A stretch of 33,027 nt of DNA from Eubacteriales bacterium (lineage in GTDB: Bacteria; Bacillota; Clostridia; Oscillospirales; CAG-272), in NCBI GenBank assembly GCA_045638405.1, contig JAZUBG010000036.1:1-33027 (forward strand). Direction: 5' to 3'. Positions within the stretch are counted from its first letter, which is position 1; the number at the start of each line of letters is the position of its first letter. A model generated the notes under the pieces. The model had not been told where the DNA came from, ran no database searches, and worked only from the letters and a program-made list of their open reading frames with translations. The position numbers and the translations under genes are program-made. Positions 8,793 through 29,088 of the stretch are shown one piece after another.

Positions 8793-11384
8793 TCAGTCTC
8801 TTACACGAATGATTTTCACCGGATCAACACGGCATATCCTGATCATGGGTATAATAAAGGAAATAAACGCCAGTATCACCGTAAAAGCCGCGTTTTTCAG
8901 CATGATCGTACTGTCAAAGGAAATAAAATCAAGCTTTAATATCACTCTGCCCGACACAAACGTCTGTAATGACTCGGTCAGAATTCCGTTCACCGTACTA
9001 ACAAACGCCGAATATCCCACACACGTGAGTATCACCGTTAAAGCAGCAATCAGTACAACCTGAAAAACAAACACAAATCCTACCGTAGGATTTTTCATAC
9101 CTAAAGCTTTCAAGATTCCGATCTCATGCCGTTTTTCCGTTACCGTCTTCGATGCAAAGTTCATAAGCACGAATATCACACCGGCACACAGTATCAGAGC
9201 CATAAGCCTGAAAACAGGTACAAATACCTCAACCGCCTTTGACATAGTACCGAGACTGTCCGTAACGGCAAGATTTTTCTCAAAACCTTGCTCTGTTGCA
9301 ACATTGATCACACGATCAAGACCGTCTTTACCGTTAAAATACAACCCAATGGGATAAACGTGATCAGCAAGAAAGGCACTGTAAATCCCCTCACCCACAA
9401 TAAAGGTTCCGCACATATCTCGAGATCCATCTTTGAAGAGTCCAACGACCTTTACTTCCTTCTCAAACAGAGGCTCACCGTTCTGCTCAGAATACAGATA
9501 ATGTCTCAATGTAAAGGTGTGTCCCTCGAAACTGTCAAAATTCTCAACGCTATAATCCGTACCGAAAACGCGGTTATAAGTCACACAGTCCATTAGAAGT
9601 TCGTCTTCCCCAAGACTGATTCCGTAAACATCGTCGCGTCTGACCTGAGGAATATCCGTTGTAAACTTTTCTCCTCCGTCAATGCTGAGTGCATAATGCC
9701 ACACCGTATCCCATGCAGGTGAATTTTCAGCATCAGTCCTGAAATCGGGATTAAGTGAATAGCAAAAACCGTAAGAGGAGTGAACGTCATCAATAAAATC
9801 AAGAACAGATTCACTTTCAAGTAACTTTTCAGCTTCACCGAAATCAAGCTTCTCGGCAATATCAAAGTATTTCTTATACTTATCGCGATACCCCGTGTCA
9901 ATTACCGCGTTTATATATCCGCGGGTGACACAGCTGTACTCGCTTTTCGTACCCCATCTGTACTCACCGATAAGACTATCATAGTCGTGAGCATAGGATA
10001 CCTGACCGCTGTTGATTATAATATCCGCAATATAATCTGTGATTATCACCCCTGTGGGGTGGAACTCTTCCGCTTTTGCCAGATATTTGACTTTTCCAAA
10101 CTTATCTTCAAGGAACTTTTCGTCAACCACCATCGTTCCGAGTGGTTCCAGAATACCAAAGGAATCATCGAAAAAACTTGTTTTCATCCCCGCAGAGCTC
10201 TGGCTTCCGCTTATACTCGGAGCATATTTCAAAACCTCGTAAACTTCTCCGCTGTATCCTGCGTCTCTGAAAGCTCTGATGTCGTCTTCATATATCCGCG
10301 GAAAAGTATTCGCTACCTTTTTCAGTTTTTCAAGCTCACGCCTCTGACCCGCGGTGAGAGTCTTCGTCACATAGATCGAATCCGAGTCCGTCGCCGCAAG
10401 CTCGCGTCGCATAACGTCCGAAGCATCAAATTCCGCAACGGTCTGCGAAAGTGCCATGACCACCATTACCGCCGCGACCATAATACTGTATAAAACAGCT
10501 TTCATGAGATTTCCTCGCAGCATTCTGCCGCAAAGGCGTATCTTACGTGTAAAGGGCATACCTGATTTGCGAAAGGTGTGATCAGAAAGAACAGTTTCGG
10601 TCTCTCCGGTGGGAATATATTTGTTCTGCTTTTCTACCGTACTGTCTCCGTCTGACAGTTCTTCTCCTTCAAAACAGAGAAAATCACCGTCATTACCCGG
10701 ATTTTTATATTTCGGATTAATTGAACTATCAGACAGAACCTTACCTCCTGAGAGCTCAATTATACGGTCTGCAAAACGCTGTGCCGCCACGGCGTTATGA
10801 GATACCACAAAAACAAGACTTCGACGCGAGATCTCTCTCAGCAGCTCGAAAACAGCGTCTGAAGCGTCAGAATCAAGATTTCCCGTGGGCTCATCGGCAA
10901 GTATCACACCGGGGGATTTTACCAGTGCCCTGGCCACACACACTCTCTGTCTTTCTCCTCCCGATATTTCGGAAGGGTATCTGTCAGAAAGCTCCGCAAT
11001 TCCCACAGTCTCCAATGCTTCGCGTATTTTTTGAGTGTCACAGTCCCCTGCAAGTTCAAGGGCGAGTGATACGTTTTCCCACACCGTCAAGTTGTCGATA
11101 AGATGGTAATCCTGAAAAACGAATCCCACTTCTCTGTTTCTGTAGTCAGCAAGTTCGGCAGAATTATACGCTGAAATATCTCGTCCGTTGAAACAGACCT
11201 TTCCTTCACTCGGACTATCGAGACCGCCGATAATATTAAGCAGCGTGGATTTACCGCTGCCGCTTTTTCCGAGAAGAAAAACGAGTCCCGTACTCGGAAG
11301 GGTCAGACTTATTCCTTTTATTGCACCGTAACATTTTCTTTTTTTCGATCTGTAAGTTTTGGACAGATCTTTAATTTCAATCAT
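8793..11384 (-). CDS. MacB-like ABC transporter, fused ATPase and FtsX-type permease
   Basis: GKSGSGKS, ISGGERQR, ILADEPTGNLD, VSH; large extracellular loop; C-terminal EIGILKALG FtsX motif. Confidence 0.92.
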   Translation of the reverse strand: MIEIKDLSKTYRSKKRKCYGAIKGISLTLPSTGLVFLLGKSGSGKSTLLNIIGGLDSPSEGKVCFNGRDISAYNSAELADYRNREVGFVFQDYHLIDNLTVWENVSLALELAGDCDTQKIREALETVGIAELSDRYPSEISGGERQRVCVARALVKSPGVILADEPTGNLDSDASDAVFELLREISRRSLVFVVSHNAVAAQRFADRIIELSGGKVLSDSSINPKYKNPGNDGDFLCFEGEELSDGDSTVEKQNKYIPTGETETVLSDHTFRKSGMPFTRKIRLCGRMLRGNLMKAVLYSIMVAAVMVVMALSQTVAEFDASDVMRRELAATDSDSIYVTKTLTAGQRRELEKLKKVANTFPRIYEDDIRAFRDAGYSGEVYEVLKYAPSISGSQSSAGMKTSFFDDSFGILEPLGTMVVDEKFLEDKFGKVKYLAKAEEFHPTGVIITDYIADIIINSGQVSYAHDYDSLIGEYRWGTKSEYSCVTRGYINAVIDTGYRDKYKKYFDIAEKLDFGEAEKLLESESVLDFIDDVHSSYGFCYSLNPDFRTDAENSPAWDTVWHYALSIDGGEKFTTDIPQVRRDDVYGISLGEDELLMDCVTYNRVFGTDYSVENFDSFEGHTFTLRHYLYSEQNGEPLFEKEVKVVGLFKDGSRDMCGTFIVGEGIYSAFLADHVYPIGLYFNGKDGLDRVINVATEQGFEKNLAVTDSLGTMSKAVEVFVPVFRLMALILCAGVIFVLMNFASKTVTEKRHEIGILKALGMKNPTVGFVFVFQVVLIAALTVILTCVGYSAFVSTVNGILTESLQTFVSGRVILKLDFISFDSTIMLKNAAFTVILAFISFIIPMIRICRVDPVKIIRVRD

Positions 11385-11541: not shown

Positions 11542-12462
11542 TTACTTTTCTTTTCTTGTGAGGATCTTTTCACCGTCGAATACCAGGTATCCGATACCCT
11601 CTCCGGACTTTCCGCCCTCAAGGAAGTATTTTTTGAAGCTGCGTCTCATAGAGTTGTCTTCGTACCACTCCTCGAGAGGCTTCTGATAGCTCTTGCCGAA
11701 GAGTCTCCATGCATCACCGAAGTCATCTTCTTCCTCTACTTTTATAATATCCCAGTCGTCCATGAAGTCAATTGAGTTGGAGCCTTCGGGGAACGCATTC
11801 TTATACCCGGGATAGAGGAGCCATGAACCGCAGCCGCATACGAGAGCGTCTGTGCGACCGTGTTCCTTGGAGTAGAAGTCATACGCCATCTTGTAGGACT
11901 TCATTCTTGACTCATAGTCAACGGGACCGAAGTTGGAGGGAATATGGATTCCGAGACAGGGTCTGCCCACTTCGATGGTAAATCCACCGCATACACGGTT
12001 GAAGTCGTTGTCATATGTGCCGTCCTGATACTCAAAACGTCCGAATTTGATGAGCTTACACTTCATGAAAAGTCCAAACCAGAAGCCAACGAAGGTACCC
12101 CAATAACCGTAGATCTCATAGCACTCGTACGCTTTACTGCGAAGGTCAGTGAAGGTGTCCCAAATCACTTCTTCCGGAACACCGCGCTTTTCGTAAAGGT
12201 GCTTTGCTCTCTCAAGAGCAAAGAACAGCATGAGCATCCAATATGAATAAGAGTGGTTTCCTGCTCTGTCCTTGAATTCAAGGAAGATCTCGTCCATCTT
12301 GTCTGAATTGAATCTGCATTCGAAATATATGTCAACGAAAGAGTCGAACTCTTCTTCAAAGCCCTGCGCAATAACGCTGTCCGCAAGATCTCTGAAATAA
12401 ACTTTTGCGTCATCGGGGAACTCGCACTTGTCAAGGACAAGGTTCATAAACTCTAAATTCAT
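11542..12462 (-). CDS. Acyltransferase domain protein (NAT_N + GNAT-like C-terminal, DUF5596-type), paralog A
   Basis: RGVPEEVIWDTFTDL, KFGRFEY, IHIP, CGSWLL, NSMRR motifs. Confidence 0.75.
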   Translation of the reverse strand: MNLEFMNLVLDKCEFPDDAKVYFRDLADSVIAQGFEEEFDSFVDIYFECRFNSDKMDEIFLEFKDRAGNHSYSYWMLMLFFALERAKHLYEKRGVPEEVIWDTFTDLRSKAYECYEIYGYWGTFVGFWFGLFMKCKLIKFGRFEYQDGTYDNDFNRVCGGFTIEVGRPCLGIHIPSNFGPVDYESRMKSYKMAYDFYSKEHGRTDALVCGCGSWLLYPGYKNAFPEGSNSIDFMDDWDIIKVEEEDDFGDAWRLFGKSYQKPLEEWYEDNSMRRSFKKYFLEGGKSGEGIGYLVFDGEKILTRKEK

Positions 12463-12508
12463 AAAAATGCTCCTTTATGGGTAAATATGTTATAAAATTA
12501 TCGTGATA

Positions 12509-13222
12509 TTACTTTTCGGGAACAACGTCACCCTTGAGGAAGAAGGCGCTTCTTTCGGGAGCGTCCTTGGCACCGTTCCACGGCTCGTCTGTGTAACGGT
12601 AGTCGAACTTCTTACAGAACCAGCTTACGTCGTCTCTGAGAGAAGCAACGTACTCCTCCTCAGCCGCGCCTACGGTCTTATAGAATTCGGCAAACTCCTT
12701 CTTTGACATTCTCTCCTGAGCCGCCGCAAGAAAACGCACGTAATGGTCAAGGCAGAAGTGGTGCTGCGCCGCTGTCTTTTCGCGGAAAGAGGGATCGTTT
12801 TGCCAGAGGAGAGCCGCCGCTTCAACTCTCAGGTTGAAGTTGTGCTCGATCCTGTCGCATATGTAGCATCCGTCGGAAATCGCTCTTAGGCTTTTTGCCG
12901 CAGACGCGCCTGATTTTGCGGGGAAAAGTCCGCATTTCATCTCGGAGACAATGTGGTCGAGGTGACTTTCAAGCATCAAAGCGAGAGGGAGGCGTTTGCC
13001 CATGGTGAAGAGCTTTGCAAGGTGGTCGGGGCAAAATCCTGCTTCATTGGTCTTGATACGCGTATCGGGCTCCATCATGGAAGCACCGAGAATAAGGTCA
13101 AGCTCTTCCTTTTCAAGACTGTCGTACATACGGCAGAAGGGACAGATATGTACTCCTTCCTTCGATGCTTCGATAGATTCTTCAAACGCCATATTGACGG
13201 GTATTGTATAGATCTGTTCCAT
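12509..13222 (-). CDS. DUF6062-like putative zinc-binding protein
   Basis: IYTIPV start; CPFC, GFCPDH, CYIC, FCLDH; KFDYR. Confidence 0.7.
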   Translation of the reverse strand: MEQIYTIPVNMAFEESIEASKEGVHICPFCRMYDSLEKEELDLILGASMMEPDTRIKTNEAGFCPDHLAKLFTMGKRLPLALMLESHLDHIVSEMKCGLFPAKSGASAAKSLRAISDGCYICDRIEHNFNLRVEAAALLWQNDPSFREKTAAQHHFCLDHYVRFLAAAQERMSKKEFAEFYKTVGAAEEEYVASLRDDVSWFCKKFDYRYTDEPWNGAKDAPERSAFFLKGDVVPEK

Positions 13223-13318
13223 ATATTAAGTACCTTTCAGTTGTTTTTTATGATCTTGCTCAAACAGCTATTACGGTAATTCTGTCTTTATCAAATGCTA
13301 AACAGGGTAAGCGTTTTT

Positions 13319-14251
13319 TTACTTTTCACTCCAGGTGAGAACCTTCTCACCGTCAAATATCAAATATCCGTTTGCACTGCCGGGACAACCGCCGTCAAGG
13401 AAGTATTTCTTGAATCCGCGACGCATTGACGTGTCCTCGGGAAGCTCCGCGAGAGGCTTCTCTGAATCTTTTCCGAACACTCTCCAACGGTCACCGAACT
13501 CATGATATGCACCGGGTTCCTTGCTGTGAATGTTAGCGTATTCAAAATCATCCATAAAGCTGCGGGAATTGGAACCTGCGGGGAACGCTGCCTTATAGGG
13601 TGGGTACATAAGCCATGAACCGCAGTAGCAGGGAAGATAATCAGTACCGAGCTCCTTGGTGTAGAAGTCGTATGCCATCTTATATGACTTCAGTCTTGCT
13701 TCTCTGTCGAAGGGCTCACCGCTTGAGGGAATGTGCAAGCTGAGCATCTTCTTACCCTTTGTGAACGTCACGCCGCCGTAGGTTTTAGCTTCGTCTTCCC
13801 AATATTCCGCATCCTGATACTCAAGGCGTCCGAATTTAATGATACGGCAGAGATAAAAGAGTCCGTACCATCCTGCAACGAAGGTACCCCACACACCCTT
13901 GATCTCTTTACATTCAAGTGCTTTGCATCTGAGATCTGAAAACGTATCCCAGAACACCTCTTCGGGAACACCGCGCTTGTCGTAAAGGGGCTTTGCCTGC
14001 TCTACCGCAAGAATGAGCAGAAGCATCCAGTATTCATACGCTGTGTTACCTGCCTTTGCAGCAAATTCCTTCAGCTTTCCGTCTATCATGTCGCAGTGAC
14101 ACTTTGATGTGATGTATTCGTCAACGATGGAATCAAATTCAGCTTCGTAGCCTTCTGCGATGAGGCGGTCTGCAAGCTCTCTGAAAAATATACAAGCTTC
14201 CTCGGGGAAGGTGCATTTTTCGAGAACAAGATTCATAAACTTAAGATTCAC
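13319..14251 (-). CDS. Acyltransferase domain protein, paralog B (GTG start)
   Basis: Colinear and highly similar to 11542-12462 (MNL.FMNLVL.KC.FP, HIPS, CGSWL). Confidence 0.75.
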   Translation of the reverse strand: MNLKFMNLVLEKCTFPEEACIFFRELADRLIAEGYEAEFDSIVDEYITSKCHCDMIDGKLKEFAAKAGNTAYEYWMLLLILAVEQAKPLYDKRGVPEEVFWDTFSDLRCKALECKEIKGVWGTFVAGWYGLFYLCRIIKFGRLEYQDAEYWEDEAKTYGGVTFTKGKKMLSLHIPSSGEPFDREARLKSYKMAYDFYTKELGTDYLPCYCGSWLMYPPYKAAFPAGSNSRSFMDDFEYANIHSKEPGAYHEFGDRWRVFGKDSEKPLAELPEDTSMRRGFKKYFLDGGCPGSANGYLIFDGEKVLTWSEK

Positions 14252-18012: not shown

Positions 18013-18097
18013 GCGGGTGTGGCGGAACTGGCAGACGCGCCAGATTTAGGATCTGGTATCCACCGCTGTGCAGGTTCAAGTCCTGTCACCCGCACCA
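18013..18097 (+). tRNA. tRNA-Leu (anticodon TAG)
   Basis: GCGGGTG/CACCCGC acceptor stem, CCAGA-TTTAGGA-TCTGG anticodon arm, long variable arm, GGTTCAAGTCC T arm, ends ACCA. Confidence 0.96.
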
Positions 18098-18194
18098 AGT
18101 CTTAATAGCTTGAACCTCTTTGCCGTTGGTAAGATGTTCGGGCTATTTTGCTTTATGGATGAGTATGAAAAATTCGACGGTTAATAAGCGCACG

Positions 18195-18223
18195 AAAGCC
18201 GCAGGCAACTCGCCTGCGGCTTT
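18195..18223. terminator. Bidirectional terminator at the island left end
   Basis: AAAGCCGCAGGC / GCCTGCGGCTTT perfect 12-bp stem. Confidence 0.8.
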
Positions 18224-18241
18224 GTGTATTCAGGTATTCCC

Positions 18242-18463
18242 TTATGCTTCTATTTCATCAAGTTTGTTTTCTTGGTTGCTTCCTCTTTTCTCGGTACTGT
18301 CAGCACCCTGTTTTTTACGAGCTTTCCATTCTGCATAGTCTCGTTTTCCTTCTTCGGATGCAAGATACTCCTGCATAATCGGCAGCAGTATCCGTGCCAA
18401 AGATTCCATTTCATATTCGGGGATACCTAAATCATTGCGAGGAATTTTCTTCTTTCTCGGCAT
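18242..18463 (-). CDS. Small helical protein (73 aa), candidate recombination directionality factor
   Basis: RBS GAAAGGA before ATG 18463 (MPRKKK...LARILLPIMQEYLASEEGKRDYAEWK); directly downstream of the tyrosine recombinase gene. Function is inferred from position. Confidence 0.65.
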   Translation of the reverse strand: MPRKKKIPRNDLGIPEYEMESLARILLPIMQEYLASEEGKRDYAEWKARKKQGADSTEKRGSNQENKLDEIEA

Positions 18464-18495
18464 GATATAGTTATCCTTTCGTTTTTTAGTTATGA

Positions 18496-19458
18496 TTACT
18501 CTTCGTAAATCTTCGTAATTCCGGAGCGATGATGACCGAGTCGCTCTGAGACCTCTCGTCTTGCTTGTTCCGCATTCATTCCACGGGTAATAAGTCTTTC
18601 TTCGGCTTTTTGCGCGTAGGTGTGCCGTATTGAATGCCAACCGTATCCACTATCTGCTCTCTCTTTCTTGCCTTCTTTGATTTGACTCTTCCGATCGGGA
18701 TCCAAAATTTCGTCAATATGATTGCTCATCCAATTGGTCAAAGCGGTTTTCACCCTCTTTACGCTGTTCTTGTGATTATCGCAGAACAAATAATTGCTTG
18801 ACTTTTTCCCGTCCGCCTTGGCAATATTTAAAATCTTTTGCAGCACTATGACTTGCTCTTCCGTATCAAGCGGAATATCTCTTGCCTGACCGCCTTTTCC
18901 GTTGGGAATGTGTAACTGTTTTGATTCAAGAGCTTCTTCCAATTGATAGATTCTTAATGTGACAAGCTCATTTTTTCGCAGACCAAAATGGTAAACGATA
19001 TATGCACCAAACACTACGCCACGTCTGTCTCCGCTATTTGCGATATCTACCATTTTCGTCATTTCACTGTCAAGGAAGCCCTTGTTGTACTTGCCGACCT
19101 CTCTCTTCTCCAAATCCAGCTTCTTGTTCTCCGGCAGCTTGTTCTTACACTTTGAATGTTTGTGCCAAAATCGAATGGCGGACAGCTCGGTCATAATATA
19201 CGATGCACTTTTCCCATTTGCCTTAAGAAAATCAACGTAGGCAAAAATATGCTTGGCAGAAACATTGTTAACATTCTCAAGACGAAAATCTCTTGCGAGG
19301 AATTTTGCAAAGCGGTCTTCAAGCGCAGGGTGATAACGCCTTCTTGTTTCAATTGATCCATTGTTGCAGTTATCAATATCACGCTTGAACTGAACGGCAA
19401 GGTTGTTCGCCATATTCACCTGGGTCTCGGTCAATTCATACTTAATCTGAACGCCCAT
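18496..19458 (-). CDS. Tyrosine recombinase-superfamily protein (SAM-like core-binding + catalytic domain)
   Basis: Intact R (FGLR), K (GKGG), HSIRH, LGH and C-terminal Y (TKIY). RBS AAGGAGG before ATG 19458. Confidence 0.9.
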   Translation of the reverse strand: MGVQIKYELTETQVNMANNLAVQFKRDIDNCNNGSIETRRRYHPALEDRFAKFLARDFRLENVNNVSAKHIFAYVDFLKANGKSASYIMTELSAIRFWHKHSKCKNKLPENKKLDLEKREVGKYNKGFLDSEMTKMVDIANSGDRRGVVFGAYIVYHFGLRKNELVTLRIYQLEEALESKQLHIPNGKGGQARDIPLDTEEQVIVLQKILNIAKADGKKSSNYLFCDNHKNSVKRVKTALTNWMSNHIDEILDPDRKSQIKEGKKERADSGYGWHSIRHTYAQKAEERLITRGMNAEQARREVSERLGHHRSGITKIYEE

Positions 19459-19488
19459 AGGCCTTTCACCTCCTTTCTGTAAATCTTT

Positions 19489-19516
19489 CAAACGAAAATT
19501 CCAATATTTTCGTTTG
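19489..19516. promoter_or_regulatory. Inverted-repeat operator candidate upstream of the tyrosine recombinase
   Basis: CAAACGAAAAT-6 bp-ATTTTCGTTTG. Confidence 0.55.
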
Positions 19517-19749
19517 TACTGTAGTAATGCATTACAAAAAGGGGGGCTTTCAAGAAAAATAGAAAATAATTTTGAGTAAAAAACGCAGGGACGAAAGATT
19601 TATCTTCTATCTCTGCATTTTGCTGACCAAAATCTATTTTAGTTGTTTTGATGACGAAAATTTTTGCGCCGTCATATCGATACGACAATCATATATCATT
19701 TCAATAGGACAGCATACTTTCGAACTTTACGTGACTCATTTTCAGCCGA

Positions 19750-19809
19750 CTGTTTTGTGTGTGATACGGCTTGTACCTATCCCGCTTATCCGTATTACAC
19801 ATAAAACAG
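19750..19809 (+). other. 20-bp hairpin with an oriT/nic-like motif in the loop
   Basis: CTGTTTTGTGTGTGATACGG / CCGTATTACACATAAAACAG (two G-T pairs); loop contains ACCTATCCCGC. Confidence 0.5.
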
Positions 19810-20046
19810 CCGGAACGCCGCAGGCGAAAAAACGCTTCTCTATAATAAATCTACGGGCATCATTTCGAAGGGACAGTCATTCTTTATCATTTCAAAATTA
19901 TAGGTTATCATTTTTCATTTCAAAAAGACAGCGGCAAGGCATAGCTATCCCATTGGCACGGAGATGAATTTTTCGTGTCATTTCTTCTGTTTTCTTTTTC
20001 TATGCTCCGAAAATGCCTTGCCGTTCGGCGACTTCAACGGAGTTTT

Positions 20047-20087
20047 CGTCGCCGTTTCTATTTTCTTCGCTAATAGAAACGGCGACG
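20047..20087. repeat. Perfect 16-bp inverted repeat
   Basis: CGTCGCCGTTTCTATT-9 bp-AATAGAAACGGCGACG. Confidence 0.85.
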
Positions 20088-20247
20088 CTTTCGAAAAGAC
20101 AATCATAAATCATTTCAAATTGAGTCGTCCCGCTTATCACAAAACAGTTATTGGGGAAGTTAACTGCTACGCGAGACTTTTCATATATCATCTCGAAGCG
20201 ATAATCATAGAGCATGTCGAAAAGTGTATCATATTTGATTGTGTAAC

Positions 20248-20602
20248 AATGAAGGTGAGTACAGCGGATATAATCCGGCGCATACCTGCCACGTGACAGG
20301 CGTCAGATACTCGCGTACTGACAGCGCAGTGCCGTATACTGTAACTGTTTACAGCGCCTCCTTAATTCGGTCGACGGCAAGGATTTCATTTACCGTTGGA
20401 AATCCGGGAAACCTCGGCTGTGCCCTTTGTCGCACAGAGACAGCGGTTAAATTGACCGTGCCGCACACGGTTGACTGCTTGGCAGATCTTTTGCTTTGGA
20501 TGTGGGAGTACCTCTGTAATCCACCTTTTCATTCACAAGCCGCAGTCTGCTGTGAACCGTCATGTTGCCGTGTTACTTGGATTTGAACATTGCAGGCAAC
20601 AT
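20248..20602 (+). other. Multi-hairpin structured non-coding element (ncRNA or ssDNA origin candidate)
   Basis: A run of short stems; possible closing helix AATGAAGGTG / CACCTTTTCATT. Read by eye, not folded computationally. Confidence 0.4.
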
Positions 20603-20625
20603 TTTCTTGGGATTTGTCCTTTCAT
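20560..20625 (-). CDS. Possible 21-aa Cys-rich small ORF
   Basis: GAAGGAGG RBS then MKGQIPRKCCLQCSNPSNTAT*. Confidence 0.3.
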   Translation of the reverse strand: MKGQIPRKCCLQCSNPSNTAT

Positions 20626-21020
20626 TTGAATTCCTCCTTCATTGTCATAAATATATTTTGACCCCGTAACAAGCTCCTTGCTTGTCGGAGAACAAAAACA
20701 AGGTACAAAAAAGCACTTACCCGAAGATAAGTGCTGCTGTTGCTGTATGCGGAAGGAAACACATAACTTCGAAAGTTCTACTAAGTTTTGTTTTTGAATG
20801 CTTCCTTCATATTTTTAAGCTCATATATAATATGATCGATTTTGAGGCAATCGTCAAGGGTGGATACAAATTTTTCTAAGAAATTTTAAAACGTGGCTTG
20901 TTCAATAATTGATTGCTTTTTTAGCTAGTAGAAAATATCGCTAACTAAATTTGATAGCACCCGTCAATGAGAAGATGATACAATACTCGCCACTTTTCAA
21001 TATCTTTTTACAATTTACTA

Positions 21021-21059
21021 TTGAAATATTGTTATAAATATGTTATAATGATGTTATAA
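21021..21059 (+). promoter_or_regulatory. Promoter of the R-M operon overlapped by three phased TGTTATAA repeats
   Basis: TTGAAA-17 bp-TATAAT; TGTTATAA at 21030, 21041 and 21052 (11-bp period). Confidence 0.7.
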
Positions 21060-21083
21060 TCAATCGCGCTGAGAGGTGTAACA

Positions 21084-21287
21084 ATGACATTTGCCGAAAA
21101 GATGCAGGCTGTTAGAAAACAGTTGTTCTTAAGCCAAGAAGCTATAGCAAAAGAACTTGGTGTTTCTTTTGCAACGGTGAACCGTTGGGAAAAAGGAAAA
21201 TGTGAGCCGAGTTATAAGGCACAAAAAGCCTTTAACGACTTATGTGAGAAACATAATATAGACGTTACTTCACTTGTCGATAACTAA
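21084..21287 (+). CDS. Xre-family HTH regulator (controller-like)
   Basis: LSQEAIAKELGVSFATVNRWEKGK..P; first gene of the R-M operon. Confidence 0.9.
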   Translation: MTFAEKMQAVRKQLFLSQEAIAKELGVSFATVNRWEKGKCEPSYKAQKAFNDLCEKHNIDVTSLVDN

Positions 21288-21288
21288 T

Positions 21289-21699
21289 ATGGAAAAGACA
21301 AAAGAACAAATCAGCTACAATATGCAACAAGTTAAAAATAAAGATTCAAAGATCGAAGTCTTGTTGCGTAAAGAATTATGGTCACGCGGTATTCGTTACA
21401 GAAAGAACGTAAACCACATATACGGTAAGCCTGATATTGTATTCATAGGCAAAAAGGTTGCCGTCTTTTGTGACAGCGAATTTTGGCACGGATACAATTG
21501 GGAACAACGAAAGAACGATTTCAAATCGCACCAAGAATTTTGGATACCGAAGATCGAACGTAACATAAAGCGAGACGCCGAAGTAACGGCAAAACTCGAA
21601 TCCGAAGGATGGACGGTACTCCGTTTTTGGGGCAATGATATCAAAAAGAACACGGCGCAATGCGCAGATATAATTGAAAAGGCGGTATATTCAAAATGA
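21289..21699 (+). CDS. vsr: Very short patch repair endonuclease
   Basis: SYNMQQVK.KDSKIE, GKPDIVF, FCDSEFWHG, FWIPKIERN..RD, GWTVLRFW. Confidence 0.93.
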   Translation: MEKTKEQISYNMQQVKNKDSKIEVLLRKELWSRGIRYRKNVNHIYGKPDIVFIGKKVAVFCDSEFWHGYNWEQRKNDFKSHQEFWIPKIERNIKRDAEVTAKLESEGWTVLRFWGNDIKKNTAQCADIIEKAVYSK

Positions 21700-23408
21700 A
21701 TCAGTTGAAATCTGTAGATTTATTCGCCGGTATTGGTGGGATCCGGCTCGGCTTTGACAGAGCCTTCGGTGACAGTATTGACACTGTGTTTGTATGCGAA
21801 TGGGATGAAAACGCACAGAAAACCTACAAAGCAAACTTTAACGATAATTTTGCAATCGCAGGTGATATAACCAAAATTGACGAGAAGGATGTCCCCGAGT
21901 TTGACATCTGTCTCGCAGGATTCCCTTGTCAGGCGTTCAGCCTTGCAGGACAGCGTATGGGCTTCGAAGACAACTATAAAGGTATGTGCCGCGGTACGCT
22001 ATTTATGGACGTGGCTCGTATCTGTGAGTACCACAAACCAAAAGTAATCTTCTGCGAAAATGTAAAGGGGCTCGTTATCCACGATAGAGGAAGAACCTTC
22101 AATATTATTTGCAAAACCTTTGAAGATCTTGGATACAGGGTGTTCCATAAAGTTTTAAACAGCAAGAATTTCGGAGTTCCACAGAACAGGGAAAGAATTT
22201 ATATCGTGGCTTTCAGAAATGATATTGCTCCCGAAAACTTTGTATTTCCCGAAATTACCGATGACACCAAGCGATTGCGTGATATTCGCGAAGAAAATTC
22301 TGTCCCCGCAAAATATTATTTGAGTGATGTGTACGTAGAAACGCTGCGTAAGCACAAAGCACGTCACGAATCTAAGGGCAATGGTTTCGGTTACGAAATC
22401 CGTGATTGGAGTGATATAGCAGGTGCTATAGTGTGCGGAGGCATGGGGAGAGAGAGAAACCTTGTGATTGATAAGCGCCAACAGGATCTTACACCTACCA
22501 CCCACATTAAAGGAAATATCAACAAGGAAGGCATCCGAAAAATGACTCCCCGTGAATGGGCACGTTTGCAGGGGTTCCCGGATAGTTTTGACTTACCTCT
22601 TGCCGATACACATCTATATAAACAATTTGGCAATAGTGTAACTGTAAATGTAATAGAAGCTATCGCCAAAGAGATAAAAAAAGTGCTTGATGCACATTCG
22701 AAAAATGGTACTCCCCCAGCTACCAAAAAACGAACTTCGGGGACGAGCATTTTGAAGAAGTATCTTGAAGAACATGTTGGTGAAGAGATACCGTTGGATA
22801 CTTTAAATACCATTTGCGGTGATGCCGGATTGCACCATTGGGACAGAGTTATTCGAAATCTTATACAGCAAGAAGGCTACGATATTGAGAACAAAAAAGG
22901 TGAATGGTATAAATTGCGCTCTTTAACCAAAAATCCCGTCAAAAGCAAACGTTCGTATATAAGCAAAAAGCTGAAATATATGGTGTTTGAAAGAGATAAC
23001 TTTACTTGTCAAGCCTGCGGTAAAAATATACGAGACGACAAGATTAAACTAAGCCCTGACCATATCATTCCTGTTGATTGGGGCGGAGACACAACCCTTG
23101 ACAATCTTCAGGCACTATGTACCGAATGTAATGAAGGTAAACAAGCTTGGGTCGACGGCGAAGATAACGCTATTATGAAAAAAGTAAGTTTGCAAACAAG
23201 TGCAAAAATGAGGTTGAAGGTGTATTTTGAATCACACCCCAATGAAGAAATTCCCGTGGATCGGTTATCGGTTGTTGCCAAAACGCGGGAATGGACACGT
23301 TCTATCAGGTATTTACGCTCTGAATATGGACTAAATATCGAATACAGACCTGCAAATAAAAATTCAAACAGATTGACAGATACTTACATCTTTTTGAAGG
23401 AGGAATAG
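21696..23408 (+). CDS. C5 cytosine methyltransferase (M.HpaII-like) fused to a wHTH-HNH-wHTH endonuclease module
   Basis: FAGIGG, FPCQ, ENV, QNRER, YKQFGNSV. TRD (LRKHKARHESKGNGFGY..GGMGRERNLVID) closely matches M.HpaII as recalled. After a short linker: CQACG..PDHIIP..GG..DNLQALCTECN. Confidence 0.88.
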   Translation: MNQLKSVDLFAGIGGIRLGFDRAFGDSIDTVFVCEWDENAQKTYKANFNDNFAIAGDITKIDEKDVPEFDICLAGFPCQAFSLAGQRMGFEDNYKGMCRGTLFMDVARICEYHKPKVIFCENVKGLVIHDRGRTFNIICKTFEDLGYRVFHKVLNSKNFGVPQNRERIYIVAFRNDIAPENFVFPEITDDTKRLRDIREENSVPAKYYLSDVYVETLRKHKARHESKGNGFGYEIRDWSDIAGAIVCGGMGRERNLVIDKRQQDLTPTTHIKGNINKEGIRKMTPREWARLQGFPDSFDLPLADTHLYKQFGNSVTVNVIEAIAKEIKKVLDAHSKNGTPPATKKRTSGTSILKKYLEEHVGEEIPLDTLNTICGDAGLHHWDRVIRNLIQQEGYDIENKKGEWYKLRSLTKNPVKSKRSYISKKLKYMVFERDNFTCQACGKNIRDDKIKLSPDHIIPVDWGGDTTLDNLQALCTECNEGKQAWVDGEDNAIMKKVSLQTSAKMRLKVYFESHPNEEIPVDRLSVVAKTREWTRSIRYLRSEYGLNIEYRPANKNSNRLTDTYIFLKEE

Positions 23409-23410
23409 TT

Positions 23411-24070
23411 ATGGCCAGTGCAAAAGAAAAAATGAAGATATATTTACTTAATCATGTTGGAGAGGATGTTTCAAGAGAAACTCTTCGTGAAGTAGCAGGA
23501 AATATCCAAGATTGGCAACGTTCGTTAAGACAGTTGCGTCAGGAAACGGGACTTGACATCGTTCCAACACGAACAGGATATATTTTGACGTCAGATGTTC
23601 CCGTTAATGAACCGCAAATTCGCAGACCGATAGATGCAAGATTAAAATATGCCGTACTGCAAAAAGATAACAGTACTTGTCAAAGATGCGGTGCCAATAT
23701 TCAAAACACCCCTAACGTGAAGTTGGTAATTGACCACAAAGTGCCGGTTGATCTCGGTGGAGCAACAACGATAGATAACTTGTGGACTCTGTGCGAAGAC
23801 TGCAACGGCGGCAAGAAGGCTTTCTTTACCGATGAAAACGCTGATGCGGTTAAAGAGATTATGCGAATGGACAGTGCTGCCAAACGTCTTAAAGCATATT
23901 TCGAATTGTATCCAAATGTCGTCATTGAACCGATAAAACTTTCCACAATAGCTAATGTTCGAGATTGGGAAAGAACTTTGAGATTGGTTCGTGCTAAATA
24001 CAACATGCAAATTGATTGGATCAGACCTAACGAGGAATATCGTATGGGCGGATATATTTACAGAGAATGA
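23411..24070 (+). CDS. HNH endonuclease, wHTH-HNH-wHTH, paralog of the fused module
   Basis: CQRCG..IDHKVP..GG..DNLWTLCEDCN flanked by two SA..L..Y......W.R.LR repeats resembling the R.KpnI N-terminal domain. Confidence 0.88.
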   Translation: MASAKEKMKIYLLNHVGEDVSRETLREVAGNIQDWQRSLRQLRQETGLDIVPTRTGYILTSDVPVNEPQIRRPIDARLKYAVLQKDNSTCQRCGANIQNTPNVKLVIDHKVPVDLGGATTIDNLWTLCEDCNGGKKAFFTDENADAVKEIMRMDSAAKRLKAYFELYPNVVIEPIKLSTIANVRDWERTLRLVRAKYNMQIDWIRPNEEYRMGGYIYRE

Positions 24071-25002
24071 TTGTGGGCAGTCTTTTTTCGGGTATTGGTG
24101 GCATTGAACTTGGATTTGAACAGGCTGGATTCGAAATTGCTTGGGCTAACGATATTGATTCGGAGGCATGCAAAACTTACCGCCATAACTTTCCGAAAAC
24201 ACATCTCATAGAGGGGGATGTGCTTGACGTCAATCCTCATACACTCCCTGATATAGATGTACTTGTTGCGGGATTTCCGTGTCAGCCGTTCTCAATTATG
24301 GGATATCGGCGCGGATTCAAAGATCCTCGCGGAAATTTGTTTTTTGAGATTTCTCGTTTCATTGACATTAAGCGTCCGCGAGTAGTATTCCTCGAAAACG
24401 TGCAAAACCTTATGGAACACGATAACGGCAAGACGTTCCTTGTTATTTACAATACTTTGGCACAGTTCGGTTACTCCGTCAAGTACAAGGTTATAAATGC
24501 TACCGACATTAATATTCCTCAAAATCGTGCGCGTATTTTCATCGTTGCGTTTCTTAATATAGAGGATTGTGACCACTTTTCCTTCCCCGAAACAATACCG
24601 CTTGAAGCGACAATTGAGGATATTATTGACCGCAGCATAAAGCACGACGATATTTATTATTACGACTATAGTAGCCGATATTTTAAGGAGCTTGATTCGA
24701 AAATTGTCGATAAGACGGGTATTTACAGAATTGACGATAGCGGTGTCGCAATGCGCAAATGGGAAATCTGCCCCACGTTGAAAGCCAATATGGGAACTTA
24801 CCCTGACCGTATTCCAATCATCCGTGACGATTTCGGTATCCGCAAGCTTACACCTATGGAATGCCTTGCATTCCAAGGCTATCCAAAGACCTATTCTTTC
24901 AAGGGGATTTCTCTTGAAAGTGCATACAAACAATGCGGAAATACGGTGTGTGTTCCTGTTATAAAAGGAATTGCAAAAGCAATATATCTAAGCATTAAGT
25001 AG
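24067..25002 (+). CDS. Second C5 cytosine methyltransferase
   Basis: FSGIGG, FPCQ, ENV, QNRAR, RKLTP.EC..FQG, YKQCGN; ATGA overlap with the HNH gene. Confidence 0.92.
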   Translation: MIVGSLFSGIGGIELGFEQAGFEIAWANDIDSEACKTYRHNFPKTHLIEGDVLDVNPHTLPDIDVLVAGFPCQPFSIMGYRRGFKDPRGNLFFEISRFIDIKRPRVVFLENVQNLMEHDNGKTFLVIYNTLAQFGYSVKYKVINATDINIPQNRARIFIVAFLNIEDCDHFSFPETIPLEATIEDIIDRSIKHDDIYYYDYSSRYFKELDSKIVDKTGIYRIDDSGVAMRKWEICPTLKANMGTYPDRIPIIRDDFGIRKLTPMECLAFQGYPKTYSFKGISLESAYKQCGNTVCVPVIKGIAKAIYLSIK

Positions 25003-25033
25003 GACTATTAGTTTAATTTAGGAGGCATTGAAA

Positions 25034-26428
25034 ATGGAGCGACGTACAATTCCAATTGATACGCTATTACTATCTGATGGTAACCCAAGGTTGGATCCTT
25101 CGTTGGGAGAAGATGAAGCGATCCGTAATATGGTATTAGACCAAAATGATAAATTGTTTGAACTCGCTTCAGATATCGTAGAGCACGGATTAAATCCATT
25201 GGATACGATAGGTGTATTTCCTTCGGAAACATACGACGGATTTTATGAGGTTGGCGAAGGCAACCGTCGTATGTGTGCTCTGAAACTCCTTATTACTCCG
25301 GAACGTATTCGTGAAATCAATCCCAATTTGCACTCTAAATTTTCCACATTATCGCAATCCTTTAAAGCTCCCGATTCTATTGAGGTCGGAGTTTTTAACG
25401 ATGAAAAGTCTATGCGCCATTGGATGGAAATACGCCATATGGGTGAGCAAGGAGGAAAGGGATTATCCAAGTGGAATTCTGTTCAAAAAGCTCGGTTCAA
25501 CAGAATGCAAACAGGATCAGATGCTCTATTGGATTTTTGGGATTGGATGATTGCAAACAATATACTTTCTAACGAAAAAATATTCCGTGTGACCAAAACA
25601 AATTGGCAGCGTATTCTTCGTGAAAAATATTTTCCTTTTTTGAAAATTCAGTATAATGGGGTGTATTCTGTTTTACCAACCGATATTGACATTTTTAAAG
25701 AACGAATACAAGCAGTTCAGCAAGCGTTAGATGGGCAAACTGTAGCTATCGTTTATGATCAAGAAAGAATAGAAAACTTTTTTAATTTGATTTCCAATAC
25801 GCTATATGGAAAGCCATATCAAGATGTAGTAAAGGATGAATCCGAACAAATATCCATTTCCCCGGCTGTAACGCCAATTGAAGACGGTAGAAAAGAAACC
25901 GGATCAAACTTAATCAATCATAGTTTTGAAGGTGTTTCTGATCAGATGGAGGTTTATCCTTCAACTGATAACACAACAAGTACGATTCCTACACAAACAA
26001 TGGGTCGAGATGTTTTTAATGGTTGTTCTACAATAATTCCTTACCAATATTCAATTCGCACGAGTAATATGCGATTAAATAAGATTATCAACGAACTCAA
26101 ACGTCTTGATGCCAGTGTTTATCCCAATGCTTGCGGTACTCTTTTGAGAACTTTATTCGAATTGTCAGCCAAAGTTTATTTGGAAAAGCAGGATGGCAGA
26201 GATCACACCAGTGATGAATTCCAACAGGTGATTAGGCAAGCGGCAAATGAGCTGCGAAACAAAGGATGTATTGATAACAGCCAACATTCAGCTATATTTA
26301 GTGATATTGATAATTTAAGAAAGATATTTAATGGATATATGCATAATACGGAATCGTATCCGAGTAGCGAAGCACTCAAAAACTTCTTTAAGTGTCATCG
26401 CCATTTTATTCAAGAGTGTTTAAAGTAA
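25034..26428 (+). CDS. ParB/sulfiredoxin-like N-terminal domain + C-terminal HEPN-like domain protein
   Basis: L...NPR and EGNRR..ALKLL; low-complexity linker; NACGTLLRTLFE ... RKIFNGYMHN. AGGAGG RBS favours ATG 25034. Confidence 0.7.
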   Translation: MERRTIPIDTLLLSDGNPRLDPSLGEDEAIRNMVLDQNDKLFELASDIVEHGLNPLDTIGVFPSETYDGFYEVGEGNRRMCALKLLITPERIREINPNLHSKFSTLSQSFKAPDSIEVGVFNDEKSMRHWMEIRHMGEQGGKGLSKWNSVQKARFNRMQTGSDALLDFWDWMIANNILSNEKIFRVTKTNWQRILREKYFPFLKIQYNGVYSVLPTDIDIFKERIQAVQQALDGQTVAIVYDQERIENFFNLISNTLYGKPYQDVVKDESEQISISPAVTPIEDGRKETGSNLINHSFEGVSDQMEVYPSTDNTTSTIPTQTMGRDVFNGCSTIIPYQYSIRTSNMRLNKIINELKRLDASVYPNACGTLLRTLFELSAKVYLEKQDGRDHTSDEFQQVIRQAANELRNKGCIDNSQHSAIFSDIDNLRKIFNGYMHNTESYPSSEALKNFFKCHRHFIQECLK

Positions 26429-26443
26429 AAGGAAGGACATATC

Positions 26444-28093
26444 GTGGTTAAGAGTATAAATATTGTTCAGTATCGAAAGTTGAAAGACTTGTCATTAAAT
26501 TTTTCTAAAAAGATTAATGCTATTTCTGGAACCAATGGTACGTGCAAAACGTCTTTGTTGCATTTGTTGGGAAATTCTCTGCAAGCACCAACTAAGGGGT
26601 GTTCTTGGATAACCGATGATAAATGTTTGCCTATTATTAAATCGGTGAATAATGTAACAAATCCCAAGGTTGAAAGTCTTACGCGAGGGGATCAAACCTA
26701 TAATGATCCTGCACACGGTATAAAAGGTTCGCTGTTTTCGGTTGATTATTATGGCGCAGAAACCTTGGACTTCAGACGTCACAATTCAACCCAAATGACA
26801 CGCTATGCTGTTAAGCCGAAGTATCAGCCCGGAACAAAAGATACATTACCGCATTGCCCTGTGATTTACTTAGGTCTTTCGAGATTAGTACCCTTCGGGG
26901 AATTTCAAAATGATGATGCTTTGTCGACTATCAAAAAGAAATTACCCCAAACTTACCAAGATGAAATCGCGTCACTGTATAAGAAGTTTACCAATTACAC
27001 CATCGCATTCAATGACACAAAACAAATGGGTGACATTAAGGTGAGAAGTGAATTTTCCAGCAATATAGAAGGTATTGATTCCAATACTATTTCTGCCGGA
27101 GAAGACAACCTAAGTATAATACTAACGGCATTGATCTCGTTGAAATATTACTATCAATCAATTAACTCTACAAAAGAGGTGGAAAGTGTTCTCTTAATAG
27201 ATGAAATGGATGCAACCTTGCACCCAGCTTTTCAAATTAAGCTGTTGAATCTCTTTCGCGAAATGTCGGATTTGTACAAGATTCAGATTGTATTTACAAC
27301 GCATAGTATGTCTTTGCTTGAAGAGATGCTTTCTAAAAAAGACAACGTATTGTATTTGGTCGATAATTTAACTTCGGTATTCCTTATGGAAGAACCCGAT
27401 ATCTATAAAATCAAAATGCACTTGCAATCTCTAACGCAGGAAGATATTTATGAAGACAAGGTAATTCCTTTATTCACCGAAGATGATGAAGCACGTTGCT
27501 TGCTTGATTTGCTATTTGATTACTATCAAAAAACGTATCCCGAATTTAGGAATATAAGTGGATTGTTTCATAAAGTTCTTACAAATATCAGTGCGGAAAA
27601 TTTAACAGGTATATTCACAGACGGGAAACTGTTACATACGACAATGCGTTCCATTTGTCTTTTGGATGGAGATCATAAATCCGATATAACTAATTTCATC
27701 GTTGCACTTCCCGGTAAAGCTTCACCTGAAACGGTTTTGATTGGTTATGCAGAAAAACTCTATAGTGAAGATGATGCTTTCTGGAGAGAGAGAACCATTG
27801 TCAATAAAGGCTATACCAAAACTTATTATATAAACAATATCAAGAATGCGGTTGATGAATTTGAAGCACAAATTGTTAGCTTACACGAAAATGGAGAATC
27901 GGCAAAGGGCAAAAGACGTAAATTTTATAAAGAGTTGTTTAACGATAATAAAACCTTTTTCACACTACTGTTTAAGCATTGGATTCATAATCCAATAAAT
28001 AAATCAGAAGTAGATAGGTTTTATAATGAGTTGCACATTGTATTTTTGAAAGTGGCTCCGTATCACGAGATTAATCCGAAAGAATGGGCATGA
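26444..28093 (+). CDS. ABC-type ATPase with C-terminal TOPRIM-like domain (OLD/AriA-like clade)
   Basis: Walker A GTNGTCKT, signature ISAGE, Walker B LIDEMDATLHP, FTTHS; then FTED and LDGD acidic motifs. Confidence 0.8.
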   Translation: MVKSINIVQYRKLKDLSLNFSKKINAISGTNGTCKTSLLHLLGNSLQAPTKGCSWITDDKCLPIIKSVNNVTNPKVESLTRGDQTYNDPAHGIKGSLFSVDYYGAETLDFRRHNSTQMTRYAVKPKYQPGTKDTLPHCPVIYLGLSRLVPFGEFQNDDALSTIKKKLPQTYQDEIASLYKKFTNYTIAFNDTKQMGDIKVRSEFSSNIEGIDSNTISAGEDNLSIILTALISLKYYYQSINSTKEVESVLLIDEMDATLHPAFQIKLLNLFREMSDLYKIQIVFTTHSMSLLEEMLSKKDNVLYLVDNLTSVFLMEEPDIYKIKMHLQSLTQEDIYEDKVIPLFTEDDEARCLLDLLFDYYQKTYPEFRNISGLFHKVLTNISAENLTGIFTDGKLLHTTMRSICLLDGDHKSDITNFIVALPGKASPETVLIGYAEKLYSEDDAFWRERTIVNKGYTKTYYINNIKNAVDEFEAQIVSLHENGESAKGKRRKFYKELFNDNKTFFTLLFKHWIHNPINKSEVDRFYNELHIVFLKVAPYHEINPKEWA

Positions 28094-28113
28094 ATATGAG
28101 AGGAGGGATTGAT

Positions 28114-28944
28114 TTGCCAATAACACCATCACCATTGAGATATCCCGGTGGTAAAACCAAATTGTATGAGTATGTTAAGTCTATTATAAAGGCAAACAAT
28201 CTAATAGGAGAAACTTACATTGAACCTTTTGCGGGTGGCGCAGGTCTTGCTTTGAAACTTCTATTGAACGGAGATGTTAAGAAGATTGTTATAAACGATT
28301 TGGATCCTGCAATATATGCATTTTGGTATGTTGTGTTAAACCAAACAGACGATATTTGCAACTTTATAACGACCGTTCCCGTAACATTAGATGAATGGGA
28401 TAAGCAACACGATATCTATGTCAATCAAGCCGCACATACTCAATTGGAACTTGCCCAAGCGACATTTTTCCTTAATCGAACCAATATTTCTGGTGTGATT
28501 ACCGGAGGTATGATTGGCGGAAGAAAACAAGAGGGAAAATATAAGATAGACGCTCGTTTCAATAGAACGCAACTCGTTGAGAGAATACGAAAAATAGCAA
28601 ATTATTCTGATAAAATTGACCTTTATAATTTAGATGCGATTGATTTTATAAAACCCGAGGTCTTAGGACATTACTACAAAGTTTTTATTAATTTTGATCC
28701 ACCTTATGTCGATAAGGGCGGTGAATTATACAAGAACTCGTTCACCGAAGAAGATCATCGAATTTTAAGAGATCATATCGCTCAATGCAATCGCAAATGG
28801 ATTGTAACATATGATATATGTGACTTGGTTGCAGAGCTATATTCTTCATATCGTGGTGGTACAGTGGATATTTATTATAGTGCCAACAAAGCTAAAAAAG
28901 CTCAAGAATATATTTTCTTTAGTGACAACTTGATTTTACCGTAA
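28114..28944 (+). CDS. D12-class (Dam-like) N6-adenine DNA methyltransferase
   Basis: SPLRYPGGK, YIEPFAGGAG, INDLD, DPPY. TTG start at 28114 after AGGAGG; alternatives at 28084 and 28096. Confidence 0.9.
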   Translation: MPITPSPLRYPGGKTKLYEYVKSIIKANNLIGETYIEPFAGGAGLALKLLLNGDVKKIVINDLDPAIYAFWYVVLNQTDDICNFITTVPVTLDEWDKQHDIYVNQAAHTQLELAQATFFLNRTNISGVITGGMIGGRKQEGKYKIDARFNRTQLVERIRKIANYSDKIDLYNLDAIDFIKPEVLGHYYKVFINFDPPYVDKGGELYKNSFTEEDHRILRDHIAQCNRKWIVTYDICDLVAELYSSYRGGTVDIYYSANKAKKAQEYIFFSDNLILP

Positions 28945-28978
28945 TGTGAATTGGTTGATCGAAATAAATCTAATATAT

Positions 28979-29022
28979 AGCCACCATCAAACGCTTCATT
29001 ATATGATGGTGGCTTTTGTTTT
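28979..29022 (+). terminator. Intrinsic terminator closing the defence gene run
   Basis: AGCCACCATCA / TGATGGTGGCT then TTTGTTTT. Confidence 0.8.
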
Positions 29023-29088
29023 TAGTTTAACAAAACGTTTCGTCACGAAAATTCTATGCATATTTCGTTTATATAATCTTCTTCCGTA

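Follow-up and report, generated by a model that had tools for sequence, protein, structure and literature searches.

The window, by which we mean the whole stretch of 33,027 nucleotides analysed here, is the entire 33-kb contig JAZUBG010000036.1 of an Eubacteriales bacterium (Clostridia; Oscillospirales; CAG-272) and comes from a genome bin of 74% completeness. The subject of the present analysis is a module within this contig that consists of a tyrosine recombinase gene on the minus strand and about 1.6 kb of non-coding DNA upstream of that gene, where a structured element, a palindrome, further repeats and a candidate small RNA are located. The module comprises the following features.

18496 to 19458, minus strand: tyrosine recombinase gene, 320 amino acids, with core-binding and catalytic domains and all catalytic residues present
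19459 to 21083, upstream of the recombinase gene: non-coding region of about 1.6 kb with no credible open reading frame
19489 to 19516: perfect 11-6-11 inverted repeat with ACGAAAAT-type arms, 25-30 bases ahead of the start codon and beside the ribosome-binding site
19640 to 20240, minus strand: direct-repeat array, sense TTCGAAATGAT/ATATGA, copies often 24-28 bases apart, between the structured block and the gene
19746 to 19813: long hairpin whose 24-base arms (88% complementary) enclose a loop of 20 bases
20047 to 20087: palindrome with 16-bp perfect arms and inner GTTTCTAT/ATAGAAAC, a single copy per locus
20221 to 20416, minus strand: 3' domain of the structured element, covered by model R1 and made up of eight helices, with multi-helix junctions
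20417 to 20640, minus strand: 5' half of the structured element, beginning with the conserved AAGGAGGAAUU and including a GUUCAC/GUGAAC hairpin
20705 to 20857, minus strand: candidate small RNA of about 110 bases, with a promoter-like TTGACG-17-CATATT and a strong intrinsic terminator (20735-20712) followed by a T run

The recombinase and its upstream region

The open reading frame of the recombinase spans 18496-19491 on the minus strand, and its likely start is the ATG at 19458, which is preceded by GGAGG and gives a protein of 320 amino acids. The same length was found in 8 of the 19 relatives recovered by a word-based protein search, 12 of which lie on contigs of at most 2.5 kb. The protein matches the Pfam families Phage_integrase (E = 4.8e-11) and PF02899, a SAM-like core-binding domain (E = 6e-6, residues 34-110), no arm-binding domain was detected by Pfam, and the residues R161, K188, H275, R278, H309 and Y318 are unchanged across 12 aligned relatives. 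The nearest curated or solved relatives are XerC/XerD, XerA, IntI and Cre, the last of these being among the PDB matches at E ~2e-4. Against the NCBIfam equivalog cut-offs, however, the protein scores 57.1 bits compared to 329.6 required for XerD and 50.8 compared to 335 for XerC, and it reaches 25.6 bits compared to 265 for the integron integrase. Because these scores are far below the family cut-offs and an arm-binding domain is missing, the protein is, to judge from its domains, a divergent 'simple' two-domain tyrosine recombinase without an arm-binding domain.

Upstream of the gene, between 19459 and 21083, there are only short open reading frames with implausible translations. Among 15 aligned loci of the largest clade, substitutions in the 2 kb upstream of the gene lack a 3-base periodicity (ratios mostly 1.1-1.7, with two intervals at 2.7-2.8), as opposed to ratios of 3-30 in the gene, while the mean variability in the two is alike, at 0.04-0.15. 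Furthermore, the upstream region is conserved between clades whose recombinases are only ~40% identical. Because codon periodicity is absent while the variability is as low as in the gene, the pattern of substitutions indicates that the region is non-coding but under selection.

The most elaborate part of this region is the structured element, which is ~415 bases long in the window and ~850 bases long in the largest clade, where it has an additional 5' portion. An iterative nhmmer search seeded with positions 20225-20640 of the window (minus strand) located the block at 47 places, always on the strand of the gene wherever the source includes the recombinase gene. The 3' domain was represented by a covariance model, R1, built from 26 sequences, and was searched for in 80 sources, namely the window, 74 of the homolog loci described below (six of the 80 have almost no upstream DNA and were excluded) and five extra loci. 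R1 matched 44 of the 80 sources, once in each, and all 40 matches with a recombinase gene in the source lie on the strand of that gene. Where at least 2.5 kb of upstream DNA was available, the element was present in 32 of 36 loci, the four loci in which it was not found being L030, L040, L046 and L096.

Covariation in the 3' domain was assessed in two ways. RNAalifold applied to a plain MAFFT alignment yielded 23 pairs, 16 of them with double changes. A hand-written eight-helix structure with 39 pairs was then counted on the 44-row alignment A4: 84.3% of the cells are paired, compared to 71.7% in shuffled alignments and 41-55% when the partners are slid; double-sided changes occur in 29 of the 39 pairs; and the covariation score of 0.402, as opposed to 0.191 in the shuffles, was reached by none of 500 shuffles. 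Five helices are 94-99% paired. Helices 3, 6 and 8 are misaligned in this alignment, and the segments concerned each fold to a single hairpin in nearly every clade, from unrelated sequences. Because G-U pairs are frequent, and are the commonest pair at several positions, the fold as modelled is that of the gene-sense strand, in the form of either RNA or single-stranded DNA; our preference is for an element that acts as RNA. A search of Rfam returned only tRNA at the gathering score, and nothing credible was found on L001 or L065 at E up to 1.

At the 5' boundary of the block, the AAGGAGGAAUU motif occupies 20622-20640 (minus strand) and the equivalent place elsewhere, with a start codon usually 7-9 bases on, and may be a ribosome-binding mimic or a leader. 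A conserved small open reading frame after this AAGGAGG motif was considered and rejected, given that the peptides are 1-40 amino acids long, mutually unrelated and absent in some loci. We also rejected a helix closing the block, in which 5' CAAUGAAGG would pair with 3' CCUUCAUUG; it is perfect in the clade of the window, and its support elsewhere is inconsistent, as judged by eye. Further upstream, the sense-strand layout of the candidate small RNA recurs, together with a similar terminator stem, in a distant clade (L082, 4004-4205; ~110-140 bases from promoter to terminator), and is thus common to two clades with recombinases that are ~40% identical.

Between the structured block and the gene, the palindrome combines two kinds of conservation: the inner GTTTCTAT/ATAGAAAC does not vary from clade to clade, and covariation between clades is seen in the outer stem. 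Among the 53 loci in which 900 bases or more are available upstream, 37 have the palindrome by our reading (of 39 flagged by a script, two matched another sequence), and in a scan of whole loci it occurred once in 46 of 87 sources and more than once in none. In L082, the stretch that contains its counterpart is the least variable of the module. The window also has ATCATTTC-type direct repeats, all copies of which run in the direction of the gene, and those in the relatives are almost all in one orientation. Closest to the gene, the 11-6-11 repeat has the shape of a dif/lox-type core site or of an operator and is a candidate for such a role by analogy; the geometry of dif matches this shape. 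In the largest clade, the same ACGAAAAT-type arms are 13-15 bases apart and overlap the -35 and -10 of a predicted promoter.

These findings accord with much of the sequence-only reading of the window, in which the recombinase was described as intact and as having a structured non-coding partner of 1.4 kb beside it, packed with repeats and hairpins. Both Pfam domains are in place and the catalytic residues are invariant in the 12 relatives; the partner can be traced as a non-coding region with a covarying fold over 19459-21083; and the direct repeats, the palindrome with 16-bp arms, the hairpin with 24-base arms and the 11-6-11 repeat account for the repeats and hairpins. The conserved and covarying upstream region for which that reading suggested searching in homologs was found as well, with R1 in 44 of 80 sources and double changes in 29 of 39 pairs, so that the first of its refuting conditions, namely homologs lacking such a region, does not hold.

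Recurrence of the module and its separation from integration

A scan of species-representative genomes identified 134 relatives of the recombinase, and the best 80 loci were fetched (L022-L101), from Oscillospirales genomes; the source of nearly all of these is a bin of Acutalibacteraceae, Oscillospiraceae or other Clostridia. The non-coding region and the recombinase together form a conserved 3.2-kb unit that occurs in varied contexts, with a ragged left boundary, and for which no terminal repeats were found. Contigs break within 6 kb of the gene on the upstream side in 52 of the 80 loci, compared to 22 on the downstream side, and this excess of upstream contig ends suggests that the upstream DNA is repeated or variable in those samples. 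Several bins contain three or more copies, for example those of the records behind L058, L064 and L067. Within the window's own family, the module is sparse: a DNA search scored 29 of 201 genomes, with substantive matches only in G051, G160 and G193 and most of the family-wide matches being short, AT-rich and promoter-like, and R1 under strict filters had a match in 2 of 151 family genomes.

In seven loci (L050, L052, L055, L067, L086, L091 and L095), cargo is inserted at one TTTTCGTACAC-type motif that lies ~100 bases ahead of the start of the recombinase, in the gap that separates the gene from the repeat region. The inserts vary and include a MetRS-like gene and an HTH-TPR regulator, and in L052 and L055 direct copies of the motif flank the insertion. 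The TTTTCGTACAC-type motif may be a site of cargo capture.

The surroundings of the module in the window are those of an island, with the following features.

18013 to 18097, plus strand: tRNA-Leu, at the left edge of the island, with host genes reaching up to it
18242 to 18463, minus strand: small open reading frame of 73 amino acids, directly downstream of the recombinase gene, no family match
21084 to 28944, plus strand: cargo, namely an HTH protein, Vsr, Dcm-HNH, HNH, Dcm, PD-Lambda-5 A, an AAA ATPase and PD-Lambda-5 B/Dam
29106 to 31536, plus strand: HTH protein, SWIM protein and large serine recombinase, at the far end of the island

Homology with genomes of the same genus ends at the 3' end of the tRNA-Leu, which is taken as the left edge of the island; in an empty-site comparison with these genomes, no conservation of the right flank was seen. 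The 73-amino-acid open reading frame has no SAM-like domain match; in 14 of the 80 homolog loci, a relative of it is found at the corresponding place. The large serine recombinase gene lies at 30034-31536. In agreement with the sequence-only reading, a domain scan of the main open reading frames of the island (18242-33026) detected no Rep, relaxase or type IV secretion system domains. Positions 18100-21100 show no DNA similarity to the phage and plasmid collections that were searched. The cargo at 21084-28944 is a defence cluster comprising Vsr, a Dcm-HNH fusion, an HNH protein, a second Dcm and PD-Lambda-5 A and B (E = 5e-79 and 1e-112, respectively), with an AAA ATPase of the PtuA/AriA/GajA type between A and B. 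No repeated sites were seen between the tightly packed cargo genes of the window, unlike in an integron cassette array with its attC sites.

Comparison of the downstream flanks revealed two architectures. In the distant clades, L044-L101, another recombinase gene lies 0.5-1.7 kb downstream in 32 of 58 loci, on the same strand except in L078. Its type differs between loci: there are three unrelated tyrosine integrases (444, ~390 and 414 amino acids), the last of which is adjoined by an excisionase; the fourth integrase type is a large serine recombinase, and one locus has a small serine resolvase instead. In these 32 loci, going by gene order, the conserved recombinase is not the terminal integrase. 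Because the integrases differ between relatives while the recombinase and the non-coding region are kept, these two appear to constitute a module separate from integration. In the clades L022-L045, by contrast, 15 of the 20 scanned loci carry a tRNA-Leu, tRNA-Trp, tRNA-Ala or tmRNA gene on the opposite strand at a distance of 0.3-2.4 kb downstream, and where the two leave room between them, it is taken up by cargo and not by an integrase. A large serine recombinase stands at the far end in the window, L023 and L036. Within the window, the 3' end of the tRNA, a direct repeat of which would mark the far junction of a tRNA-targeted island, has no repeat longer than 11 bases, and a 10-base match at 31627 is at chance level.

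Some individual loci of the two architectures deserve mention. In L078, the large serine recombinase gene (7805-9274) is inverted relative to eight other loci carrying the same gene, and the resulting gene order is that expected of the window's island as a circle. Between the module and the tRNA gene, L024 (1598-3079) and L038 (3976-5466) have open reading frames that look TIR-like by eye only and are possible defence cargo.

Relatives of the recombinase, at 24-31% identity, are also found in 35 PLSDB records, of which 33 are typed as non-mobilizable, that is, with no recognised relaxase. In Paenibacillus pSb31s and in a Brevibacillus plasmid, ~1.5 kb upstream of the recombinase has no gene listed, in gene tables that are incomplete in PLSDB. 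Both plasmids have long palindromes in this position, one with arms of 25 bases and the other perfect over 54 bp, and both palindromes share, by eye, a TCTCTAT-like core with that of the window. The 54-bp palindrome is free of a spacer and lies at 7678-7731 of L111, a Brevibacillus laterosporus plasmid, 130 bases upstream of a recombinase that is 31% identical. A ParA gene is nearby in two of the three inspected plasmids, those of Brevibacillus and C. perfringens. R1 gave only noise on two plasmids carrying relatives. By analogy, the plasmid palindromes and ParA would favour a Cre/lox-like action.

Comparison with known systems

The closest parallels in overall design are Cre/loxP of phage P1 and TnpI/IRS of Tn4430 and Tn5401, in which a two-domain simple recombinase acts on a site just upstream of its own gene. 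These sites combine inverted core repeats with extra direct half-sites and measure 34-116 bp. The module of the window resembles these familiar systems in all of these respects, that is, the two-domain simple recombinase, the upstream position of the putative site and its candidate inverted core with putative direct half-sites; it differs in that the spacer of the candidate core is longer and the outer stem covaries. To our knowledge, the loxP and IRS sites have no structured RNA-like partner. XerC/XerD/XerA and IntI are the best curated and solved matches of the recombinase, whereas the window gene is element-borne, multi-copy and not housekeeping, apart from scoring far below the cut-offs of these families.

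Among mobile elements, the recombinases of IS110 use a bridge RNA, and GOLLD and ROOL are large mobile-element RNAs. Similarly to IS110, the window has a structured non-coding element upstream of, and co-oriented with, a mobile-element recombinase gene, and the 0.4-0.9 kb of the element falls in the size range of large non-coding RNAs such as GOLLD and ROOL. Unlike in IS110, the enzyme belongs to another family and no guide-like complementarity was found. The literature searched included no paper on a tyrosine recombinase with a large structured non-coding partner, although such a paper may exist elsewhere.

Three recombinase-like relaxases, TcpM of pCW3, MpsA of SGI1 and MobK of pIGRK, are described in PMC8152469 as having neither a core-binding nor an arm-binding domain. 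The window protein shares with them a catalytic fold (DNA_BRE_C) with a tyrosine nucleophile and the absence of a classical relaxase from the host element, and their genes likewise adjoin a non-coding region rich in inverted and direct repeats (PMC6414798 and PMC8152469). As in the window, a small open reading frame follows mpsA; this is mpsB, and MpsB has a SAM-like domain match (PMC6414798). However, the window protein has a core-binding domain, in a comparison made by description only (PMC8152469), and on this point it lacks one defining trait of the class from which the sequence-only reading drew its analogy. Members of this class nick site-specifically at an adjacent oriT and are needed for conjugative mobilisation, and the window offers a candidate hairpin for such a site. 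Furthermore, the oriT of the three systems measure 125-151 bp, as opposed to the 1.5-2 kb conserved here together with a large structured element.

The structured element can also be compared to the single-strand origins of the ssoA type, which are strand-specific folded elements on mobile replicons, as this one appears to be. The motifs of ssoA given in PMC4598088 are RSB and CS-6 (TAGCGT), the latter in a terminal loop. In the largest clade, a TAGCGT is present ~50 bases after GCCGA, the motifs being those of the same paper. In contrast to ssoA, this TAGCGT-like stretch forms part of a helix with 99% pairing and does not lie in a loop, the RSB motif had no matches at up to 3 mismatches, and the element is larger, with multi-helix junctions.

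Interpretation of the module

The region is most likely a conserved backbone module of small integrative, plasmid-like islands in gut Oscillospirales. The mechanism that we infer for it, including the binding sites and the chemistry of the protein, the nature of the structure as RNA or DNA and the biological role, would be the following. The recombinase would have three kinds of binding site, namely the single palindrome with its GTTTCTAT/ATAGAAAC core, the repeats of the TTTTCG type and the inverted repeat located at the recombinase promoter. Rather than integrating the island, it would perform site-specific recombination on the excised circle and so resolve multimers or cointegrates, as Cre/lox and TnpI/IRS do. 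The co-inherited element of 0.4-0.9 kb, on the strand of the gene, would function as non-coding RNA, served by a promoter-like element of its own and accompanied by a small RNA upstream, and this non-coding RNA would control or prime the copying of the circle. We favour resolution of the excised circle at the single palindrome, with the structured element acting as RNA, because of the full architecture of the recombinase, its affinity to Xer and Cre, the plasmid and ParA contexts, the sense-strand promoter and terminator and the richness in G-U pairs, and we hold this account tentatively, at somewhat under an even chance. Dimer resolution, which in the sequence-only reading was the mundane alternative, is thus kept alive by the long palindromes beside the plasmid relatives and by ParA near two of three of them.

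Several observations weigh against this account. The spacer of a recombinase core site is, in the textbook case, 6-8 bases long, whereas the centre of the palindrome has 11-15 bases between the invariant cores, and the covariation of its outer stem is suggestive of an extruded hairpin, as opposed to a site in duplex form. The 11-6-11 form of the inverted repeat was found only in the window and in L022 and L023, the nearest clade. With respect to the RNA, an intrinsic terminator lies between the upstream promoter and the structured block, and contigs from the RNA-library runs X18 and X20 cover parts of the region at a low depth similar to that of the DNA runs, which does not demonstrate transcription. 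The window also shares the tRNA-adjacent layout, the gene being where integrases usually sit. Finally, a resolution system leaves 1.5-2 kb of selected sequence unexplained.

An alternative, raised in the sequence-only reading, is mobilisation, here with the recombinase as a relaxase of the TcpM/MpsA/MobK kind nicking the conserved hairpin as an oriT, the repeats holding accessory protomers and the element serving, as single-stranded DNA, as a lagging-strand origin after transfer. The retention of the module while integrases are swapped is usual for mobilisation modules; the presence of one hairpin, invariant in its core and covarying in its outer stem, the strand specificity of the structure, the absence of other relaxase or Rep domains from the island open reading frames and the non-mobilizable typing of 33 of the 35 plasmid records with relatives all fit, and a small open reading frame follows the gene as mpsB follows mpsA (PMC6414798). 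Yet the core-binding domain sets the protein apart from the three relaxases (PMC8152469), the 73-amino-acid open reading frame lacks the SAM-like match of MpsB (PMC6414798), no RSB motif of ssoA is found when up to 3 mismatches are allowed and the TAGCGT-like stretch is base-paired, the prevalence of G-U as the commonest pair at several positions is better suited to RNA, and the plasmid relatives near ParA resemble maintenance genes. We consider mobilisation doubtful, although a serious contender. The sequence-only reading assigned integration to the serine integrase and a separate function to the tyrosine recombinase; the recombinase genes downstream of it in 32 of 58 distant loci speak for such a separation, but for the window itself the premise is insecure because the gene abuts tRNA or tmRNA genes in the window's own clades. 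Accommodating this layout, the window-clade recombinase could be the island integrase for tRNA and tmRNA 3' ends, with the upstream region being regulatory or backbone, which is compatible with the other readings. A downstream tRNA or tmRNA on the opposite strand in 15 of the 20 scanned loci of L022-L045, and in the window alike, the end of same-genus homology at the tRNA-Leu 3' end, the absence of a second recombinase beside the gene in the window's clades (except in L042 and the L044/L045 subclade) and the tracking of the recombinase subclade by the tRNA type are what such a role would produce. This is nevertheless unlikely, considering that the tRNA 3' end is not directly repeated in the window, that no ACGAAAAT-type motif is present at the tRNA junction, that the protein lacks an arm-binding domain, that a large serine recombinase stands at the far end in the window, L023 and L036, and that in 32 of 58 distant loci the terminal position belongs to another recombinase.

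The strict co-occurrence and co-orientation of the element and the gene, the occurrence of the 3.2-kb unit in varied contexts, the different cargo genes at one motif ~100 bases before the gene in seven loci and the more frequent contig ends upstream (52 of 80, compared to 22 of 80 downstream) would all be expected if the element were a scaffold or guide for the recombinase, similar to the IS110 bridge RNAs, and the unit were itself mobile or cargo-capturing. However, complementarity to the tRNA or tmRNA junction does not exceed the background (own mean 9.6 compared to 8.9), the left boundary of the unit is ragged, terminal repeats were not found, and no RNA-dependent tyrosine recombinase turned up in the literature searched, so that a guide or scaffold of this kind appears very improbable. 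Stated more broadly, a Cre/Xer-like recombinase would need the element RNA as a scaffold, activator or site selector, and the 3.2-kb unit would be a cargo-capturing or self-mobile platform within islands, a proposition that we consider quite improbable; if true, it would be the first RNA-dependent tyrosine recombinase system. There remains the view that the region is decayed coding sequence or a neutral spacer in which repeats arose by chance. Short open reading frames can indeed be drawn across it, but the conservation across clades with ~40% identical recombinases, the compensatory changes and the lack of codon periodicity at a variability as low as that of the gene make this view scarcely credible.

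Whichever of the functional accounts applies, the element is an uncatalogued, covarying structure tied to one recombinase lineage across many gut Firmicute islands with defence genes, and the module provides a recognisable backbone for finding such islands in metagenomes. If the element is RNA, it would join the short list of large bacterial non-coding RNAs and would be the first to be linked to a tyrosine recombinase. If it is single-stranded DNA acted upon by a recombinase nickase, it would extend the three-member class of recombinase-like relaxases to full-length enzymes and would explain the spread of minimal islands.

Outside the island, the host part of the contig contains, at 11542-14251, two paralogous NAT_N/GNAT_C acyltransferase genes flanking a DUF6062 gene.

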